Source: a virus | Taxonomy: Duplodnaviria > Heunggongvirae > Uroviricota > Caudoviricetes | DNA: 36,413 bases | Strand: one strand, 5' to 3' | IMG/VR virus record: IMGVR_UViG_2724679172_000015 | Part shown: positions 23,911 through 31,021 of the stretch, piece by piece | Position numbering within the stretch: the stretch's first letter is position 1 | How the letters are laid out: every line of letters starts with the position of its first letter | Translations under genes and position numbers: made by a program | The notes under the pieces: model-generated | Seen by the model: only the letters and a program-made list of their open reading frames with translations | Databases searched by the model: none | What the model was told of the DNA's origin: nothing

Positions 23911-24161
23911 TGAAAGAATACCGCTATTCCGGCCCGGCCAGCGGCGTCACGCTGTCGGACGGAACCGAAATCCTGCTCTGGCCGGGGAAGACGGTTTCCC
24001 TGCCGGAGGAGCATGACTACGTGAAGGTACTGGTGGCGCTGAAACATCTGACGCCGGTACCTGAAGAGACTAAACCCGCCGGCACACCGGCTGTGCAGTC
24101 ACCAAAGCGCAGAAGCAGCAGTGACAGCGAAGTGAAAACGGAGGACACCCATGGCAGCTAA
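23910..24161 (+). CDS. Small hypothetical protein, 83 aa
   Basis: GAGGAA RBS; overlaps sheath gene start. Confidence 0.45.
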   Translation: MKEYRYSGPASGVTLSDGTEILLWPGKTVSLPEEHDYVKVLVALKHLTPVPEETKPAGTPAVQSPKRRSSSDSEVKTEDTHGS

Positions 24162-25578
24162 CTATCTGCATGGTCCCGAAACCATTGAGGTGGAAAACGG
24201 TGCCCGCCCGGTTAAAACGGTGAAATCTGCCGTTATTGGCCTGATTGGTACCGCCCCGATGGGGGATGTCAATACGCTGGTACAGTGCCTGTCTGAGAAA
24301 GACGCAGCGGCATTTGGCAGCCAGTTCACCGGCTTTACCATTCCGCAGGCGCTGGATGCGATTTATGACCATGGTGCAGGTACCGTTCTGGTCATTAACG
24401 TCCTCGACCCGGCGAAACATAAAACGGCGATCGAGGATGAGGTGGTTACCTTTGACAAATCGACAGGGCAGGCCAGACTGGCGCATCCGGTTGTCGCTAA
24501 TGTGGTGGTGAAAAACAGTGAAGGCAGCACCTCCCACACGGCGAACACGGACTACCGTGTTGATGCGCAGGCGGGTGTGCTCACGAACCTGGGCAAGGCT
24601 ATTGAGGCCGGTGGCAGCGTGAAGGTGAGCTATGAGTACGCGGACCCGTCGAAGGTGACTGCGGCGGACATCATCGGCGGGGTGAACAGCGCCGGAAACC
24701 GAACCGGCATGAAGCTGCTTAACGACAGCTTCAACCTGTACGGCTATTTCGCCAAAATTCTGATTGCGCCGGTGTTCTGCACCCAGAAGAGTGTCGCAGT
24801 TGAGCTTATCGCCATGGCAGAGAAGCTGGGCGCGGTAACCTACATTGATGCGCCTGTCGGTACCACCTTTGCACAGGCTCTGGCAGGTCGTGGCCCGGAA
24901 GGCACCATCAACTTCAATACCAGCTCCGACCGCGTCCGTCTGTGCTATCCGCATGTGAAGGTATATGACCCGGTGACAAACACAGAGCGTCTGGAGCCGC
25001 TCAGCCAGCGTGCAGCAGGTCTGCGTGCCAGAGTCGATCTGGACAAGGGCTACTGGTGGTCATCCTCCAATCAGGAGATTCTGGGGATCACCGGCGTGGA
25101 GCGCCAGCTGTCCGCGATGATTGATGACCCGCAGAGTGAGGTGAACCTGCTTAACGAACAGGGGATCACCACGGTATTCAGCAGTTACGGCAGCGGCCTT
25201 CGTCTGTGGGGTAACCGGACGGCAGCATGGCCAACGGTCACCCATATGCGTAACTTTGAGAACGTTCGCCGCACCGGTGATGTGATCAACGAGTCCATTC
25301 GTTATTTCAGCCAGCAGTACATCGACATGCCGATTACTCAGGCGCTGATTGATGCACTGACGGAGTCGGTCAACGCCTACGGTCGCAAAATGACTGGTGA
25401 TGGTGCGGTACTGGGCTTCCGTTGCTGGTTTGATCCGGCCCGCAATCCGGAGACGGAGCTGGCCGCCGGGCACCTGTTGCTGAGCTACAAATATACGCCA
25501 CCACCGCCGCTGGAGCGACTGACGTTTGAGACTGAGATCACCTCGGAATACCTGTTAACCCTGAAAGGGGGCAACTGA
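24151..25578 (+). CDS. Contractile tail sheath protein (P2 FI / Mu L family)
   Basis: 475 aa; GGAGGA RBS; motifs shared with P2 FI as I recall it (AVIGLIGTA, LNEQGITTVF, GLRLWGNRT, YKYTPPPPLERLTFETEITSEYL). Confidence 0.9.
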   Translation: MAANYLHGPETIEVENGARPVKTVKSAVIGLIGTAPMGDVNTLVQCLSEKDAAAFGSQFTGFTIPQALDAIYDHGAGTVLVINVLDPAKHKTAIEDEVVTFDKSTGQARLAHPVVANVVVKNSEGSTSHTANTDYRVDAQAGVLTNLGKAIEAGGSVKVSYEYADPSKVTAADIIGGVNSAGNRTGMKLLNDSFNLYGYFAKILIAPVFCTQKSVAVELIAMAEKLGAVTYIDAPVGTTFAQALAGRGPEGTINFNTSSDRVRLCYPHVKVYDPVTNTERLEPLSQRAAGLRARVDLDKGYWWSSSNQEILGITGVERQLSAMIDDPQSEVNLLNEQGITTVFSSYGSGLRLWGNRTAAWPTVTHMRNFENVRRTGDVINESIRYFSQQYIDMPITQALIDALTESVNAYGRKMTGDGAVLGFRCWFDPARNPETELAAGHLLLSYKYTPPPPLERLTFETEITSEYLLTLKGGN

Positions 25579-26099
25579 TGTCAAAGATTGAGATAAACCG
25601 CATCACGAATGCCAACATCTATCTGGATGGTACTAACCTGCTGGGACGGGCTGAGGAAGTTAAACTCCCCGATGTCTCCATGATTATGCAGGAACACAAG
25701 GCGCTGGGGATGGTGGGTAAGGTGGAACTCCCGGCTGGTTTTGACAAACTGGAAGGCGAAATCAAATGGAACAGCTTTTACCGCGATGCGATGCTGTCTG
25801 CCGCGAACCCGTACAGGTCGCTGGCACTGCAGTGTCGTTCCAGCGTCCAGCGCTACAGCTCGCAGGGGCTGATTGACGAAATCCCGCTGGTCACCTTCCT
25901 GACGATTATGTTCAAGAAGAACCCGCTGGGGACGTTCAAACAGCACGAGAACGCCGAGTTCTCCAGTAGCTTCACCTGCACGTATATCAGACAGGTACTG
26001 GATGGTGAAGAGCTGCTGCAACTGGACTATCTGGCCAACATCTTCCGGGTCGGCGGTGTTGATCAACTGACTGACTACCGTATCAATATCGGGGGCTGA
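25578..26099 (+). CDS. Tail tube protein (P2 FII / Mu M family)
   Basis: 173 aa directly after sheath gene, ATG overlapping sheath stop, AAGGGGG RBS. Confidence 0.8.
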   Translation: MSKIEINRITNANIYLDGTNLLGRAEEVKLPDVSMIMQEHKALGMVGKVELPAGFDKLEGEIKWNSFYRDAMLSAANPYRSLALQCRSSVQRYSSQGLIDEIPLVTFLTIMFKKNPLGTFKQHENAEFSSSFTCTYIRQVLDGEELLQLDYLANIFRVGGVDQLTDYRINIGG

Positions 26100-26101
26100 C
26101 G

Positions 26102-26383
26102 GTGAGTGTTGAACTGACGGATAAAGGAGGACGATGTGCGGCACTGGGCATGTCAAATGGTACGTGGTTTACCCTCCTTGATATTCCGGGGGTGGAAACC
26201 CTTTTTAATACCCGTAAAACCAATGACCCGATTGACTGCACACGTTCAAAGGCCCGCAAACTGGCGGATTTGATTGAAGCATGGGAGCCTCCCGACCACT
26301 GGTTCTCCGGCATCGGCAAATCTGAGGGAAAGACGCTTCTCATCGCTTTCCTGCGTAACTGCAAGGGGTTTCGCACTTGCTGA
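26102..26383 (+). CDS. Hypothetical small protein, 93 aa (uncertain)
   Basis: GTG-initiated ORF between tube gene and a terminator hairpin; no convincing RBS for an in-frame ATG. Confidence 0.3.
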   Translation: MSVELTDKGGRCAALGMSNGTWFTLLDIPGVETLFNTRKTNDPIDCTRSKARKLADLIEAWEPPDHWFSGIGKSEGKTLLIAFLRNCKGFRTC

Positions 26384-26389
26384 CATCAC

Positions 26390-26413
26390 AGGGGCTCCGG
26401 CCCCTTCTTCTTA
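26390..26413 (+). terminator. Intrinsic terminator after tail tube region
   Basis: Hairpin AGGGGC-TCCG-GCCCCT followed by TCTTCTTAAT. Confidence 0.5.
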
Positions 26414-26480
26414 ATCTCCTTTAATATCCGTCACGCGCTTCTCCCGACATACTGCCCTGAACTTACACAGGAGCACAATC

Positions 26481-26816
26481 ATGTCACAGACCCCATCCGA
26501 TACTTTTAAATTGTCTTATCCCTTCACCACTGCTGCAGGCACCAGAATTGAGCTGGTTGAACTGAAACGCCTGACGGTAAAAGACCTGAAGCAGGTGCGC
26601 AAAATCAGCAAAAACCCGGCAGACTGGGACGAACCGCTGATTGCCCGCAGTACTGGTCTTCTCCCGGAAGATCTCGACAATATGGATCTGGCTGATTACC
26701 TGCAGTTACAGAAACGATTTCAGCTCATCACGGGGATGGGTGAGAGCAACCAGGGCGCTGACGCAGGCGCAGGGGCTGCTGGCGAGATGGTTCCGGTTTC
26801 AGCCGGGGGAGATTGA
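26481..26816 (+). CDS. Tail assembly chaperone (P2 E-like), with probable frameshift-extended isoform ending at 26898
   Basis: 111 aa ORF with AGGAG RBS directly upstream of the tape measure gene; overlapping +1-frame ORF (to 26898) with protein-like C-terminus. Confidence 0.6.
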   Translation: MSQTPSDTFKLSYPFTTAAGTRIELVELKRLTVKDLKQVRKISKNPADWDEPLIARSTGLLPEDLDNMDLADYLQLQKRFQLITGMGESNQGADAGAGAAGEMVPVSAGGD

Positions 26817-26973
26817 TGCCCTCGATACTGACGATCTGGAGATGTGGCTGGAGCAGGCTGAAGAGCAAATAAAAAGCGAGTACGGCGACAAATCATAGTA
26901 CAGACAGCCGCCAGTAGCGGCTGTTCTGCGTTATTCCCTCACGTCTTTTCACCTTCCCCGGAGGTTAACCACT

Positions 26974-29925
26974 ATGTCGGGACAGTTTTCAGTCGGCGTT
27001 GTTATCGGCGGGATGATTGGCAGCACATTCCGTTCTGCAATGAGCGGTACCCGCCGTGCGCTTGATTCCCTGAGCGATACCTCACGCCGCCTGCAGGAAC
27101 GTCAGAACGCTTTAACCCGTGCAACAGAACGTTATGGTCAACTGGGTTCTTCCCGGATGCAGCATCTCAACAGCGAGCTGCTGCGGGTAAGCCGCACCAT
27201 GGAGCAAATTGAGCGCCAGCAGCGCCGTCTGTCAGCGGCATCCGCTACCAGTGATGCGCTGAAAGCTAACCGCATGGCGCTGTATGGTCAGGGGATTGAA
27301 GCGTATGGCATGGCACAGACTGTTTATCATACGGTTTCCCCTGCCGTTCAGCAGTCCATGTCTTTTCAGGACAAAATGATTGATATGTCGATCACCGCAA
27401 AATATGACAATAAAACGCGGGATGCACTTGCCGGACAGATAAAAGGCTGGGCGCTTAAATACAATCAGTATCAGGATGAGCTGCAGGAGGCGGTGGGTTC
27501 ACTCATCAGCGACAATATTGATAATGTGTCAGATATCGGTTTTCTGATGCCGGATATTGCCCGCGCGGCAACGGCAACACGCACGTCTGCTCAGGACTGG
27601 GCAAAAGTGGCCGCAGTCTGGCAAAACTCCCTGAAAGGTGCGGCCAGAGATTTTGGTGCCGTTCAGAATATTATGGCTTATGCCGGTGACCAGGGGTCAT
27701 TTGAAATCCCGGATCAGGTCAAGTGGATGCAGTCCCTGGCCCCAATGATGGCGGGTATTGCCAGTGGAAAAGAGGCTGTTGCTGAAATCGGGGCCAGTCT
27801 CCAGATAGCAAAAATCGGTGCAGGTTCCACCGACGAAGCAGCCAATAATTTTAAAAACTTTCTTACCAAAATTTTTGCCCGCGATACTCAGAAACAGTTT
27901 GCTGATCTGGGTATTGATTTGCAGGGATCTATTGCGAGTTATAAAGCTGCGGGGATCTCTCCGATTGAAGGGATGTTGAGTGTTATAGAACGTTACCTCA
28001 ATGCCAAAAGCCCCGAAGCGCTGGCCGGCTTCAAATCAGCCATGAAAATAAAGAATGATACGGCAAGAGATGAGGCACTTCAGGCTCTGGCGAAAAACTT
28101 TGGTCTGGGCGATATGTTCGCGGATATGCAGGTCATGGCATTTATCCGCCCGATGCTGGCCAACATGGACAGATATCGAGAGATCCGTGCCGGTGCTCTC
28201 AGGGCTGCGGATAACGATTTGCTTGCCAGTGCTTATGATCAGCGGCTGAAATCTCCCCTTGAAGCCACTAAAACACTTATGGTCAGCAGTCGCGATCTGG
28301 CAATTACGCTGGGCGATCAATTAGCTCCATCTTTTATTTCTTTGACTCAGGAACTGCTTCCACTCATTCAGGGGGCAAAACACTGGGTAGCGACTCACCC
28401 GCAATTTGTCAGTGGGGCTTTTAAGCTCATCAGTGCGCTCCTTGCGATTAAGATAGCGACTGTTGGTCTCAAACTGGGGCTGAATCTCCTTATTTCCCCC
28501 TTTGTAAGTGTCTGGAAAAATGCTGTTTTACTTCGGGCCAACTGGCTTCGTCTGTCGCTCGCACTGGGGCAAGGCGGTAAGCTCCGCTGGCTGGTGACCG
28601 GATTTAGCGCCGTCGCCAGAGGAGCCAGAACACTGAGTGGCGTGCTCTCCGGGGGGCTGGTTCGCGGAATTATGCTCGCCGGACGTGCTGTTCTCTGGAT
28701 TGGACGTGCGCTGATGATGAATCCCATCGGTCTCGTTATCACCGCTGTCGCGGCAGCAGCTTACCTTATCTACCGCAACTGGGGGGCAGTCAGTGGCTGG
28801 TTTAAACAGCGCTGGGCAGACATTCAGGAAGCCTTTAACGGCGGCATTGTGGGAATTGGTAAGTTACTGATTAACTGGTCGCCGGCAGGCCTGCTCTATA
28901 AAGCCTTTGCGGCTGCGCTGAAATATTTCGGCGTTGCTCTGCCGGCAAAGTTCACCGACTTCGGTGGCCATCTTATCGACGGTCTGATTAACGGTATCAA
29001 AAACAAATGGGGGTCGCTCAAATCCAGTGTAACCGGAATGGGTGACAGCATCAGTAGCTGGTTTAAACAGTGCTGGGCTGACATTCAGGAAGCCTTTAAC
29101 GGCGGTATCGCGGGAACTGGTAAGCTGCTGATTAACTGGTCGCCGGCAGGTCTGCTCTATAAAGCCTTTGCAGCTGCGCTGAAATATCTTGGTGTTGATC
29201 TGCCGGCAAAGTTCACCGACTTCGGTGGCCATCTTGTCGACGGTCTGATTAACGGTATCAAAAACAAATGGGAGTCGCTCAAATCCAGTGTAACCGGAAT
29301 GGGTGACAGCATCAGTGGCTGGTTCAGTGAAAAGCTGGGTATTCATTCGCCGAGCCGCGTGTTTATGGGCTTTGGTGACAATATCGCGCAGGGGGCCGCC
29401 ATTGGCCTGCAGCGGACCACTCCGCTTGCAGCTCTGGCCGGGCAGCGAATGGCCAGTGAACTGCTCCCCAAAATGCCCGTGAGCATTCAGGGGCCAGAAA
29501 TACGGGATAACACTTCAGGTGTTCGCTTCAGTATGCCGTTGCCCGATATCAACGGGTTTATGTCGTCTGCTAAAAATGCGATCGGAGCCGTAATCAATAG
29601 TTTGTCTTCCATGCCCGCTATCCCGCTCTCCACCCGGGCATCGATTTTACCAGGGCAACGTCTGGCAAATGAGATGACACCGGATGTTCCCCGTATCCCC
29701 TCGCCTGAAATCATGGCTGCCGGATATTCAGGCCGTGGTGCAGCTGCAACCGGCGGTGGAACGTCTGGTGGTATCCAGGTCAGCTTTAATCCTCAGTTTT
29801 TCCTCAATGGCAGGGAAACCACAGCGCCTGCAGGACTGACTGGTGCCCTGAATATGAGTCTGCATGAGCTGGAAAAAATGCTGGAGCGTCTGCTGGCTCA
29901 GAAACAACGTAAGGAGTACCGCTGA
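26974..29925 (+). CDS. Tail tape measure protein
   Basis: 983 aa; helical N-terminal region, hydrophobic central segments, internal tandem duplication; position between chaperone and baseplate genes. Confidence 0.85.
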   Translation: MSGQFSVGVVIGGMIGSTFRSAMSGTRRALDSLSDTSRRLQERQNALTRATERYGQLGSSRMQHLNSELLRVSRTMEQIERQQRRLSAASATSDALKANRMALYGQGIEAYGMAQTVYHTVSPAVQQSMSFQDKMIDMSITAKYDNKTRDALAGQIKGWALKYNQYQDELQEAVGSLISDNIDNVSDIGFLMPDIARAATATRTSAQDWAKVAAVWQNSLKGAARDFGAVQNIMAYAGDQGSFEIPDQVKWMQSLAPMMAGIASGKEAVAEIGASLQIAKIGAGSTDEAANNFKNFLTKIFARDTQKQFADLGIDLQGSIASYKAAGISPIEGMLSVIERYLNAKSPEALAGFKSAMKIKNDTARDEALQALAKNFGLGDMFADMQVMAFIRPMLANMDRYREIRAGALRAADNDLLASAYDQRLKSPLEATKTLMVSSRDLAITLGDQLAPSFISLTQELLPLIQGAKHWVATHPQFVSGAFKLISALLAIKIATVGLKLGLNLLISPFVSVWKNAVLLRANWLRLSLALGQGGKLRWLVTGFSAVARGARTLSGVLSGGLVRGIMLAGRAVLWIGRALMMNPIGLVITAVAAAAYLIYRNWGAVSGWFKQRWADIQEAFNGGIVGIGKLLINWSPAGLLYKAFAAALKYFGVALPAKFTDFGGHLIDGLINGIKNKWGSLKSSVTGMGDSISSWFKQCWADIQEAFNGGIAGTGKLLINWSPAGLLYKAFAAALKYLGVDLPAKFTDFGGHLVDGLINGIKNKWESLKSSVTGMGDSISGWFSEKLGIHSPSRVFMGFGDNIAQGAAIGLQRTTPLAALAGQRMASELLPKMPVSIQGPEIRDNTSGVRFSMPLPDINGFMSSAKNAIGAVINSLSSMPAIPLSTRASILPGQRLANEMTPDVPRIPSPEIMAAGYSGRGAAATGGGTSGGIQVSFNPQFFLNGRETTAPAGLTGALNMSLHELEKMLERLLAQKQRKEYR
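28798..29319 (+). repeat. In-frame tandem duplication inside the tape measure gene (2 x 261 bp, 87 codons each)
   Basis: Units 28798-29058 and 29059-29319 are near-identical (WFKQ.WADIQEAFNGGI...GMGDSIS.WF); periodicity is a multiple of 3. Confidence 0.85.
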
Positions 29926-30809
29926 TGTTTGCCGTACTGGGTGATATTGAGTTTGAGCTGATTACCTACTGGGACGGCTTCGAGGCCACGTTCGGCGTCG
30001 ATTATGCGGAGCATGCCCGCATCGGGGGTAAGCCTGGCCTGCAGTTCGTCGGCGACAGGCTGGACGAAATCCAGATAACTCTGGTTTTCCATCAGCATTA
30101 TTGTGTACCCGATGTGGAGCTGGCGAGACTGCGAACAGCCATGAAAGCCCATCAGGCACTGGCGCTGGTCTTCGGCAACGGTGACTATCGCGGCTGGTTC
30201 GTGATTACCGATGTGACTGCAACCAGCGAGCAGACTGACAGTACCGGCAACGTGCTGGCTGTCAGTGCCACCGTGTCTCTCCGGGAATACACCGGTGACC
30301 CGAAAAATCCTCTGCAACCACCGGCAATACGCACGAAGCTCCCGGGTGTCGGGGCGGTCTCCGGTGCCATTCCTTCACCTTCCGGGGTGGCGCAGTTCAT
30401 CCGCAACGGCGTCAACTATGCGAAACAGGCGCAGTCTGTACTCCAGACCACTATCAGCGCCGTTCGGGTGACACAGAAAATGAAGGATAACCCCGTTGTC
30501 GCACTGACCCGTGTGCCGGGGCTGATGAGCGGACTGGGTAATATCTCCGGGGCTCTGGGGAAAAGTGTTCCGGCGTTTAACGCACTCTCTGAATCCATGC
30601 CCGATGCCATCAGTCTGGCCAGAACAGCCAGCGAAGCAGCCACGTATGTACAGCAGGCACAGTCTGCGCTGAGTGGTGTGGACAAAAGAAATATTGCAGG
30701 TGCTCTGGATACCGTTTCCGGGCAGCTTAACGCCGCCGGCACAGCATTCAACCGCATGTCTCCGGGATTAAGTGCAATGGCCGCCAGAATACTGACGAGG
30801 AGTGTGTGA
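29925..30809 (+). CDS. Tail protein with gpU / DNA-circulation (Mu N) N-terminal-like domain
   Basis: 294 aa; AAGGAG RBS; N-terminal region resembles P2 gpU pattern; Ala/Ser-rich C-terminal extension. Confidence 0.55.
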   Translation: MFAVLGDIEFELITYWDGFEATFGVDYAEHARIGGKPGLQFVGDRLDEIQITLVFHQHYCVPDVELARLRTAMKAHQALALVFGNGDYRGWFVITDVTATSEQTDSTGNVLAVSATVSLREYTGDPKNPLQPPAIRTKLPGVGAVSGAIPSPSGVAQFIRNGVNYAKQAQSVLQTTISAVRVTQKMKDNPVVALTRVPGLMSGLGNISGALGKSVPAFNALSESMPDAISLARTASEAATYVQQAQSALSGVDKRNIAGALDTVSGQLNAAGTAFNRMSPGLSAMAARILTRSV

Positions 30810-31021
30810 TGTTTCTTGAACATGTTACCCGTGACGGAGAGCGCTGGGATTCGCTGGCATGGCAGTACTACGGTGACCCGCTGGGCTATCCCCGGATTAT
30901 TGCCGCCAATCCGCACGTGGCCATCACGCCGGTGCTGCCCTCCGGGCTGTTGTTACTGATCCCGGTGATTGAGGCTGAAGAAGCCCGTACAGAAGAGGAT
31001 ATTGCCCCATGGCTGAGATAA
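30809..31021 (+). CDS. Tail protein X-like (LysM-like small tail protein)
   Basis: 70 aa; GAGGAG RBS; WQYYGDPLGYPRIIAANPHVA...LPSGLLLLIPV resembles P2 gpX. Confidence 0.6.
   Translation: MFLEHVTRDGERWDSLAWQYYGDPLGYPRIIAANPHVAITPVLPSGLLLLIPVIEAEEARTEEDIAPWLR

Follow-up and report, generated by a model that had tools for sequence, protein, structure and literature searches.

A probable +1 frameshift at a conserved TTT_C site in the tail assembly chaperone gene of a BcepMu-like Escherichia coli prophage

Programmed frameshifts in the tail chaperone genes of phages are textbook knowledge, and shifts of -1, -2 and +1 are all on record. The question raised by the locus described here is whether, and at which codon, ribosomes change frame in a predicted tail assembly chaperone gene of a caudoviricete phage sequence, the IMG/VR record IMGVR_UViG_2724679172_000015, whose 36,413 nucleotides (nt) are referred to below as the window. 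The gene begins with ATG and occupies 26481-26816, encoding 111 amino acids (aa) in codons that start at positions divisible by 3 (frame 0), and it is overlapped by an open reading frame (ORF) in the +1 frame, which is open from 26641 to the stop codon at 26896-98. Because the second ORF is offset by +1 from frame 0, joining the two takes a shift of +1 or -2, not the usual -1 shift. A preliminary description of the window noted this geometry and placed the slip at a G-run, CCGGGGGAG at 26803-26811, which is indeed present just upstream of the frame-0 TGA at 26814-16. Comparison with homologous genes partly confirms that observation and partly supports its interpretation. Sequence comparison, together with homology to Mu gp41 and P2 E+E', strongly supports a tail chaperone gene in which a shift into the +1 frame is programmed, and such a shift is very likely real; the slip site, however, is probably (at a probability of about 0.8) the tetranucleotide T_TTC at 26718-21, and not the G-run.

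Regarding the conservation of the +1 frame, 45 genomic and 80 viral loci were fetched with a profile of the chaperone, of which 94 were unique and the 85 intact ones were aligned. Codon counts and entropies were taken from 42 representatives sharing less than 97% identity, and a second viral scan yielded 68 further unique loci. Every intact copy has a +1 frame that is open from at least the equivalent of 26704 to 80-103 nt beyond the frame-0 stop. This overlapping extended frame is kept open in all of the approximately 150 unique homologues, an overlap far above chance. Per-column entropy peaks at the frame-0 wobble position until about 26732; from about 26733-50 onwards, the peak lies at the +1 wobble position throughout. 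Upstream of the TTT codon (26481-26717), the synonymous share of distinct variant codons is 32% in frame 0 and 9% in frame +1; at 26737-92 the corresponding shares are 10% and 30%, and at 26793-813 the synonymous variant codons number 3/23 in frame 0 and 9/14 in frame +1. Substitutions throughout 26737-26813 are preferentially synonymous in the +1 frame. In two relatives of about 85% identity, which carry a frame-0 TAG at the equivalent of 26793-95, upstream of the G-run, the three substitutions at 26785-96 (AGA>AGG, TTC>TTT and CGG>AGA) leave the +1-frame peptide unchanged. An allele that is very common in E. coli, found in 914 contigs and giving a frame-0 product of 90 aa, contains CAG>TAG at 26751, a change that is silent in the +1 frame (ACC>ACT). 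Because this widespread allele ends at 90 aa, the Gly/Ala-rich tail of the frame-0 product (residues 91-111) seems dispensable.

The same data bear on the explanation that no recoding takes place, the +1 ORF being either translated separately, from TTG at 26641 or an internal start, or not expressed. A TTG at 26641 is listed as a start, and the annotators of BcepMu and of Pseudomonas phage Komp_PAO1_1 made the +1 ORF a separate gene. However, several lineages open the +1 frame only three codons before TTT, without any ATG, GTG or TTG ahead of the conserved Trp described below; the conserved part begins in the middle of the ORF; and in P2 (E') and Mu, the homologous extension is synthesised solely as a fusion, through frameshifting. 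Non-expression is excluded by the strong purifying selection on the +1 frame, and the explanation as a whole is highly improbable.

The conserved part of the +1 frame starts with the invariant TGG at 26737-39. From this codon, the peptide W-h-x-x-x-K-x-L-x-Q-A-x-G-L-L-A-R-W-F-R-F-Q-P-G/S-E-I/L-D is maintained among E. coli/Enterobacterales, Photorhabdus, Xenorhabdus, Lonsdalea and Dickeya, and W7, P29, E31 and L35 are invariant in the alignment of the extension. The N-terminal part of the +1 ORF had been regarded as not protein-like, which holds for the non-conserved region upstream of about 26737 and fails from TGG onwards. The C-terminal peptide QPGEIDALDTDDLEMWLEQAEEQIKSEY, in turn, was rightly taken as protein-like; it matches PF06528, albeit below the threshold in the window (18.4 bits against a cut-off of 23, E 0.0015, profile positions 4-36 of 37). 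Thirteen of 22 diverse relatives match PF06528 at E <= 0.05 (best 6.4e-6), and hhalign of the extension-family profile against P2 E' gave a probability of 80% and an E value of 1.4e-5. The predicted 138-aa fusion of both frames matches PF10109 with E 2e-22. The C-terminal end of P2 gpE+E', rebuilt from the annotated -1 site, is ...VIFHWPPSELYPMSLTELITWREKALRR, and its window counterpart is ...ARWFRFQPGEIDALDTDDLEMWLEQAEEQ. By these comparisons, the +1 extension is probably a homologue of the P2 E' domain.

As to the position of the slip, the candidate TTT_C lies about 85 bases upstream of the G-run. Codon usage at this point is strikingly restricted: among the 42 representatives, which are enterobacterial, Phe80 is encoded by TTT in 42 and by TTC in 0, and the preceding Arg79 by CGA in 40 and CGG in 2. 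Elsewhere in the gene, TTT and TTC are used 27 and 10 times at Phe9 and 11 and 20 times at Phe15; the invariant Arg30 is encoded by CGC (21), CGT (17), CGG (3) or CGA (1), and the invariant Arg56 by CGC (29) or CGT (12). CGA accounts for 7 of the 114 Arg codons in the tail genes of the window. In the second scan, 66 of the 68 loci keep TTT_C, the other two being one degenerate and one fused copy, and the contexts were CGA_TTT_CAR in 35, NCY_TTT_CGY in 23, GTG_TTT_CGG in 5, with a few other contexts besides. Where the invariant Phe aligns, a Salmonella Infantis prophage has CGA_TTT_CAG, Symbiopectobacterium and Arsenophonus elements have CGA_TTT_CGC, Ralstonia phage YO107_2 has CGA_TTT_CTG, Komp_PAO1_1 has GTG_TTT_CGG, and BcepMu has TCC_TTT_CGC, in tail genes that use TTT 14 and TTC 72 times. 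TTT_C is the only slippery motif common to all lineages, and TTC is never used there, including in the GC-rich phages of Burkholderia, Pseudomonas and Ralstonia. As a side observation, a short direct repeat encodes the tripeptide R-F-Q twice in this region, by CGATTTCAG at 26715-26723 in frame 0 and by CGGTTTCAG at 26794-26802, 79 nt downstream, in the +1 frame.

The extent of the overlap in distant relatives narrows the position further. At least five lineages have a stop in the +1 frame three codons upstream of TTT. On the downstream side, the frame-0 stop is just 21 nt past TTT in one set of loci (L147-L154), in which the conserved Trp is three codons past TTT, and 27 nt past TTT in two others (L199 and L211). 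The frame overlap in several lineages is confined to the region between 8 nt upstream and 21 nt downstream of TTT_C, and re-pairing within this narrow overlap is possible at TTT_C only.

A slip of +1 or -2 on the G-run, which would add about 29 residues, has in its favour that the run has five G and stands two codons upstream of the frame-0 stop; moreover, several database proteins are fused by loss of one G there. Nevertheless, the run is variable in relatives, which have CCGAGTGAG, CCGGGTGAG, CCGAGCGAG or CCTGGGGAG. In roughly half of the relatives, frame 0 already ends before the run, at the equivalent of 26793-95, so that the run cannot be the shift site there; the common E. coli allele stops at 26751, and BcepMu-type relatives stop 21 nt past TTT. 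Selection on the +1 frame is also seen over the 22 codons that precede the run, and the fusions come from indels in the DNA of individual assemblies and are no sign of slippage by ribosomes. The comparative data contradict a slip on the G-run, which is accordingly given very little weight, and the extension would comprise 58 residues, not about 29, if the slip occurs at TTT_C. In independent assemblies, the G5 run at 26805-26809 has repeatedly lost one G, which fuses frame 0 to the last 29 residues and yields 138-aa proteins; sequencing errors in the homopolymer and genuine alleles of decayed prophages are both conceivable causes. More generally, fused database proteins of 135-147 aa were considered as evidence for the junction and set aside, since they contain single-base indels at several places (the G5 run, CAGGGCG and GAAAAC) and stem mostly from read-level assemblies.

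A more serious competitor is a +1 slip at GGG_A (26733-26736), by which tRNA-Gly would move from GGG to GGA, instead of or besides the slip at TTT_C; the product, again of 138 aa, would read ...KRFQLITG followed by WVRAT.... Gly85 is encoded by GGG in 36 of the 42 representatives (GGC 3, GGA 2, GGT 1), the conserved +1 peptide begins at the very next codon, and synonymous variation in frame 0 goes on through the ACN and GGN codons at 26730-35. The site also resembles that of Mu, where the shift occurs on ACGGGGGCGAGTGG, two codons before a W-L-R motif, the window having ACGGGGATGG. On the other hand, Photorhabdus, Lonsdalea and Brenneria encode this Gly by GGA, GGC or GGT, from which a +1 move leads to GAT, GCG or GTC and no re-pairing; the Salmonella Infantis-type group has AGC or ACC in its place; and the motif is absent from the BcepMu- and Pseudomonas-type genes. 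A slip at GGG_A also leaves the nucleotide-level invariance of CGA_TTT unexplained, and it is considered unlikely. Another motif, A_GGG_G at 26772-75, was rejected because its fourth G is replaced by C, T or A in relatives without changing the Gly (GGN) of the +1 frame, so that this frame is already being read there.

The direction of the shift can be approached in the same way. A -2 shift as in Mu, or transcriptional slippage, is compatible with the +1-frame geometry, and the Mu homologue uses a -2 shift, described as verified, on CGG_GGG_CGA. However, no conserved site for -2 re-pairing exists, as the triplet two nt upstream of TTT is GAT, CCT or TGT depending on the lineage, and a Mu-type G-run is likewise not retained: GGGG at 26732-35 occurs in some lineages only, and the downstream G5 is not conserved. 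RNA-polymerase slippage needs long runs of A or T, and the T3 present here is too short. These alternatives are thus scarcely credible.

Several points weigh against a slip at TTT_C. The codon counts overstate independence, as the sequences are phylogenetically related. Between TTT and TGG (26721-36), frame 0 looks at least as constrained as the +1 frame, and in the linker (26722-26736) the synonymous and nonsynonymous counts give no clear winner between the frames. The enterobacterial sequences taken alone would also allow the slip at GGG_A. The A-site codon CAG is common in E. coli, so that the stimulus of a "hungry" A-site codon is not evident. No Shine-Dalgarno-like element is found in the sequence upstream of TTT_C, and RNAalifold on 23 diverse sequences indicated no conserved RNA structure 3' of the site (consensus -5 kcal/mol, 0 covarying pairs). 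A search of Rfam returned no element, the only hit being a chance match to RsmY (E 0.69) on the opposite strand. The stimulators of the classical kind would thus be missing. Finally, the long form of the chaperone is unannotated in all database records inspected.

On the preferred reading, a minority of ribosomes would shift by +1 at T_TTC, where peptidyl-tRNA-Phe (anticodon GAA) in the P site would move from UUU (26718-20) to the overlapping UUC (26719-21); equivalently, Phe-tRNA may bind UUC out of frame. AGC at 26722-24 would be read next, and translation would go on in this new frame as far as the stop at 26896-98. The predicted product of 138 aa would consist of chaperone residues 1-80 and 58 residues from the +1 frame, FSSSRGWVRATRALTQAQGLLARWFRFQPGEIDALDTDDLEMWLEQAEEQIKSEYGDKS (the first F being F80), and for annotation the join would run in frame 0 through 26720 and then over 26722-26898. 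The slip itself, its +1 rather than -2 direction and its efficiency are inferred. The rare codon CGA, which is read by I:A wobble, may act from the E site, and the flanking codons in general (CGA in the E site, and CAR or CGS in the A site) may act as stimulators. Weak pairing in the E site favours the +1 shift in prfB, and UUU-pyrimidine sequences are reportedly hot-spots of +1 errors in E. coli, as attributed to Fu and Parker in 1994 and to Schwartz and Curran in 1997. A cell-free screen of the E. coli type placed P-site UUU among the most shift-prone codons (bioRxiv 10.1101/2025.10.02.679949). In influenza A virus PA-X, UCC_UUU_CGU is a demonstrated site of +1 slippage in the P site, and its authors noted that tRNA-Phe binds UUC with higher affinity and anticipated further UUU_C sites, forming a class in which the choice of E- and A-site codons is limited (PMC3498833). 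As for function, lambda gpG/gpGT serves as the model for tail chaperones made in two forms, with a gpG:gpGT ratio of about 30:1 (PMC5009743); the frameshift efficiency of Mu in vivo is quoted as about 2%. By analogy with lambda and with P2 E/E+E', both forms would bind the tape-measure protein, and the E'-like extension would bring in the tube subunit for polymerisation of the tail to its proper length, neither form being expected in the virion.

Comparison with known systems places the gene between several precedents. P2 gpE/gpE+E', encoded in the FETUD operon, belongs to the same PF10109 family, lies likewise between tube and tape measure, and has the probably homologous PF06528 extension with the motif F-x-W/F-x-P-S/G-E-L/I...L...L..W.E.A; a Phe TTT codon is also found at its slip site, near the C-terminal end of the PF10109 domain. 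In contrast, P2 uses a programmed and verified -1 shift on T_TTT_TTG, whereas the window needs +1 and has TTT_C, and the frame-0 tail past the site is 6 codons in P2 and 31 in the window. Profile alignment of the N-domain of the chaperone with P2 gpE gave nothing significant, and the two are linked through Pfam only. Because of this result, it is not claimed that the slip codons of P2 and the window fall in the same alignment column.

Mu gp41, with its -2 frameshift product (Mu_56), shares with the window a transposable myovirus tail module, a PF10109-related chaperone, an extension in the +1 frame and a W-hydrophobic-R motif shortly past the site in the new frame. The record of Mu gp41 describes a verified -2 shift on GAA_CGG_GGG_CGA_GTG_G, which gives ...ERG followed by GEWLR..., and this product was reportedly verified by Xu, Hendrix and Duda in 2004. 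The Mu extension has no PF06528 match; moreover, the rare CGA occupies the A site when Mu shifts by -2 on CGG_GGG_CGA, whereas CGA is located 5' of the slip codon in the window, where re-pairing by -2 is impossible. With lambda gpG/gpGT, the likeness is one of functional logic, genome position, a shared N-terminus and a ratio set by low-level frameshifting (PMC5009743); no likeness of sequence is claimed, and lambda differs in its -1 shift on G_GGA_AAG and its non-contractile tail.

The closest parallel for the signal itself is PA-X (UCC_UUU_CGU), together with the UUU_CGN sites of eukaryotic RNA viruses, which share UUU_C, a tRNA-Phe preferring UUC, conserved codons on both sides of the site and no obvious RNA structure. 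The E- and A-site codons around TTT_C are restricted and conserved here as well, yet outside the BcepMu-type phages they differ from UCC and CGU, the flanks of PA-X: BcepMu TCC_TTT_CGC shares the E-site and slip codons with PA-X, whereas the window has CGA and CAG as flanks. The present case also differs in that it concerns a bacterial ribosome and gene, and in that it is predicted from sequence. We tentatively propose, at slightly less than even odds, that NNN_UUU_C with a restricted E-site codon could be a compact, structure-independent +1 signal on bacterial ribosomes; in this proposal, the E-site codon would be the rare CGA in enterobacterial phages and NCC in Burkholderia-type phages, where TCC_UUU_CGC comes close to the UCC_UUU_CGU of PA-X.

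In BcepMu, the chaperone corresponds to gp41, and the +1 extension (...LKIQPSEIAELDMDDYWHWVDAAEREIKRR) corresponds to the ORF annotated as "gp42". The GenBank note of BcepMu (AY539836; locus L130, 2603-3364) calls gp42 the analogue of lambda G and gp43 its slippage product. This G/T annotation appears to be misplaced, and gp41 and "gp42" would instead be joined at TCC_TTT_CGC (locus positions 2819-2827). In Pasteurella phage AFS-2018a (locus L134, 877-1104), an E'-like domain is found in the -1 frame, and the chaperone family therefore switches the type of shift freely. The candidate site of this relative, CAA_AAG_GGA_AAG, is lysine-rich and is not annotated as a frameshift.

The stretch around the gene (Table 1) is identified as the tail module of a BcepMu-like (Bcepmuvirus) transposable E. 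coli prophage. Escherichia phage PhiKM is 99.8% identical to positions 25500-27200, two other records are about 85% identical, and 641 of 5426 complete E. coli genomes (about 12%) carry this segment. The gene order is sheath, tube, a small ORF, chaperone, tape measure, gpU and gpX, so that the chaperone gene sits between the tube and tape-measure genes, as in the lambda G/GT class (Xu et al. 2004). The chaperone matches PF10109 with 74.8 bits, against a gathering threshold of 25 bits, and E 5.5e-21 over residues 8-81, and PGAP labels it "phage tail assembly protein".

Table 1. Coordinates of the tail genes and of the elements predicted in and around the chaperone gene of the window.
Feature	Position	Strand	Basis or remark
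Sheath	24151-25578		Pfam
Tube, P2 FII type	25578-26099		Pfam
Small ORF	26102-26383		Weak DUF7739 match
Tail assembly chaperone, frame-0 short product, 111 aa, gpE/gp41 type	26481-26816	+	PF10109 Phage_TAC_7 "E, or 41 or 14"
Proposed recoding signal CGA_TTT_CAG	26715-26723	+	Slip tetranucleotide T_TTC 26718-26721; E-site rare CGA; A-site CAG
+1-frame linker SSSRG, poorly conserved	26722-26736	+	Between the proposed slip site and the conserved Trp; 2-5 codons long by lineage
Conserved +1 coding segment, E'/T-like C-terminal domain of the predicted long product	26737-26898	+	From invariant TGG (W) to stop 26896-98; wobble-phase switch
PF06528 (Phage P2 GpE, i.e. E') match	26779-26877	+	Residues 100-132 of the predicted 138-aa product
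G-run CCGGGGGAG	26803-26811	+	Read in the +1 frame as P-G-E, part of the conserved QPGEID motif
Stable hairpin	26901-26928	+	Directly 3' of the +1-frame stop, 45 nt before the tape-measure start
Tape measure, presumed chaperone client	26974-29925	+	PF10145; so annotated in PhiKM and by PGAP
gpU	29925-30809		Pfam
gpX	30806-31021		Pfam

Other features of the module were noted beside the chaperone gene. The small ORF between tube and chaperone encodes a conserved product of 93 aa, reaches DUF7739 below the threshold (24.7 bits against 27) and is "hypothetical" in all annotations; P2 has no gene at that position. A terminator-like hairpin, AGGGGCTCCGGCCCCT followed by TCTTCTTAAT, is located at 26390-26405, inside the tail operon between this ORF and the chaperone gene. 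The hairpin downstream of the +1 stop (ACAGCCGCC-AGUAG-CGGCUGU) has a minimum free energy of -18.1 kcal/mol and a z-score of -3.9; its stem is kept in KP12 and Phi06_2974B, in which the loops differ, and it may be a partial terminator or stability element. Within the tape-measure gene, a 261-bp unit is repeated 2.0 times at 28790-29324 with 93% matches, duplicating an 87-aa block (...WFKQRWADIQEAFNGG...SVTGMGDSIS). Because tape-measure length sets tail length, this repeat may make the tail longer. In the near-identical PhiKM record, the tape-measure gene contains a sequencing gap. Among the homologues, a chaperone 99% identical at the protein level occurs on an 8.2-kb contig (NZ_PJIO01000028.1, coverage 6.95) of "Arthrobacter sp. 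GMC3", and this prophage contig in an actinobacterial assembly is most likely contamination.

With respect to novelty, no prior description of UUU_C/TTT_C in the tail chaperone genes of P2/Mu-related phages was found in the literature searched, with a mention in Xu et al. 2004 or in the BcepMu paper (Summer et al. 2004) being possible. The function predicted for the two products is ordinary, and the view of tail assembly is unchanged by the finding. Its interest lies in the mechanism, as a natural bacterial example of +1 shifting on UUU_C with conserved flanks would be of moderate interest to recoding specialists. If it is true, it would offer a tractable bacterial model for the disputed role of the E site in +1 frameshifting, and a single chaperone family, comprising those of P2, Mu and BcepMu-like phages, would reach its two products by -1, -2 and +1 shifts. 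Since related elements span Enterobacterales, Burkholderia, Pseudomonas and Ralstonia, the corrected join would lead to correct proteomes for a large group of phages.

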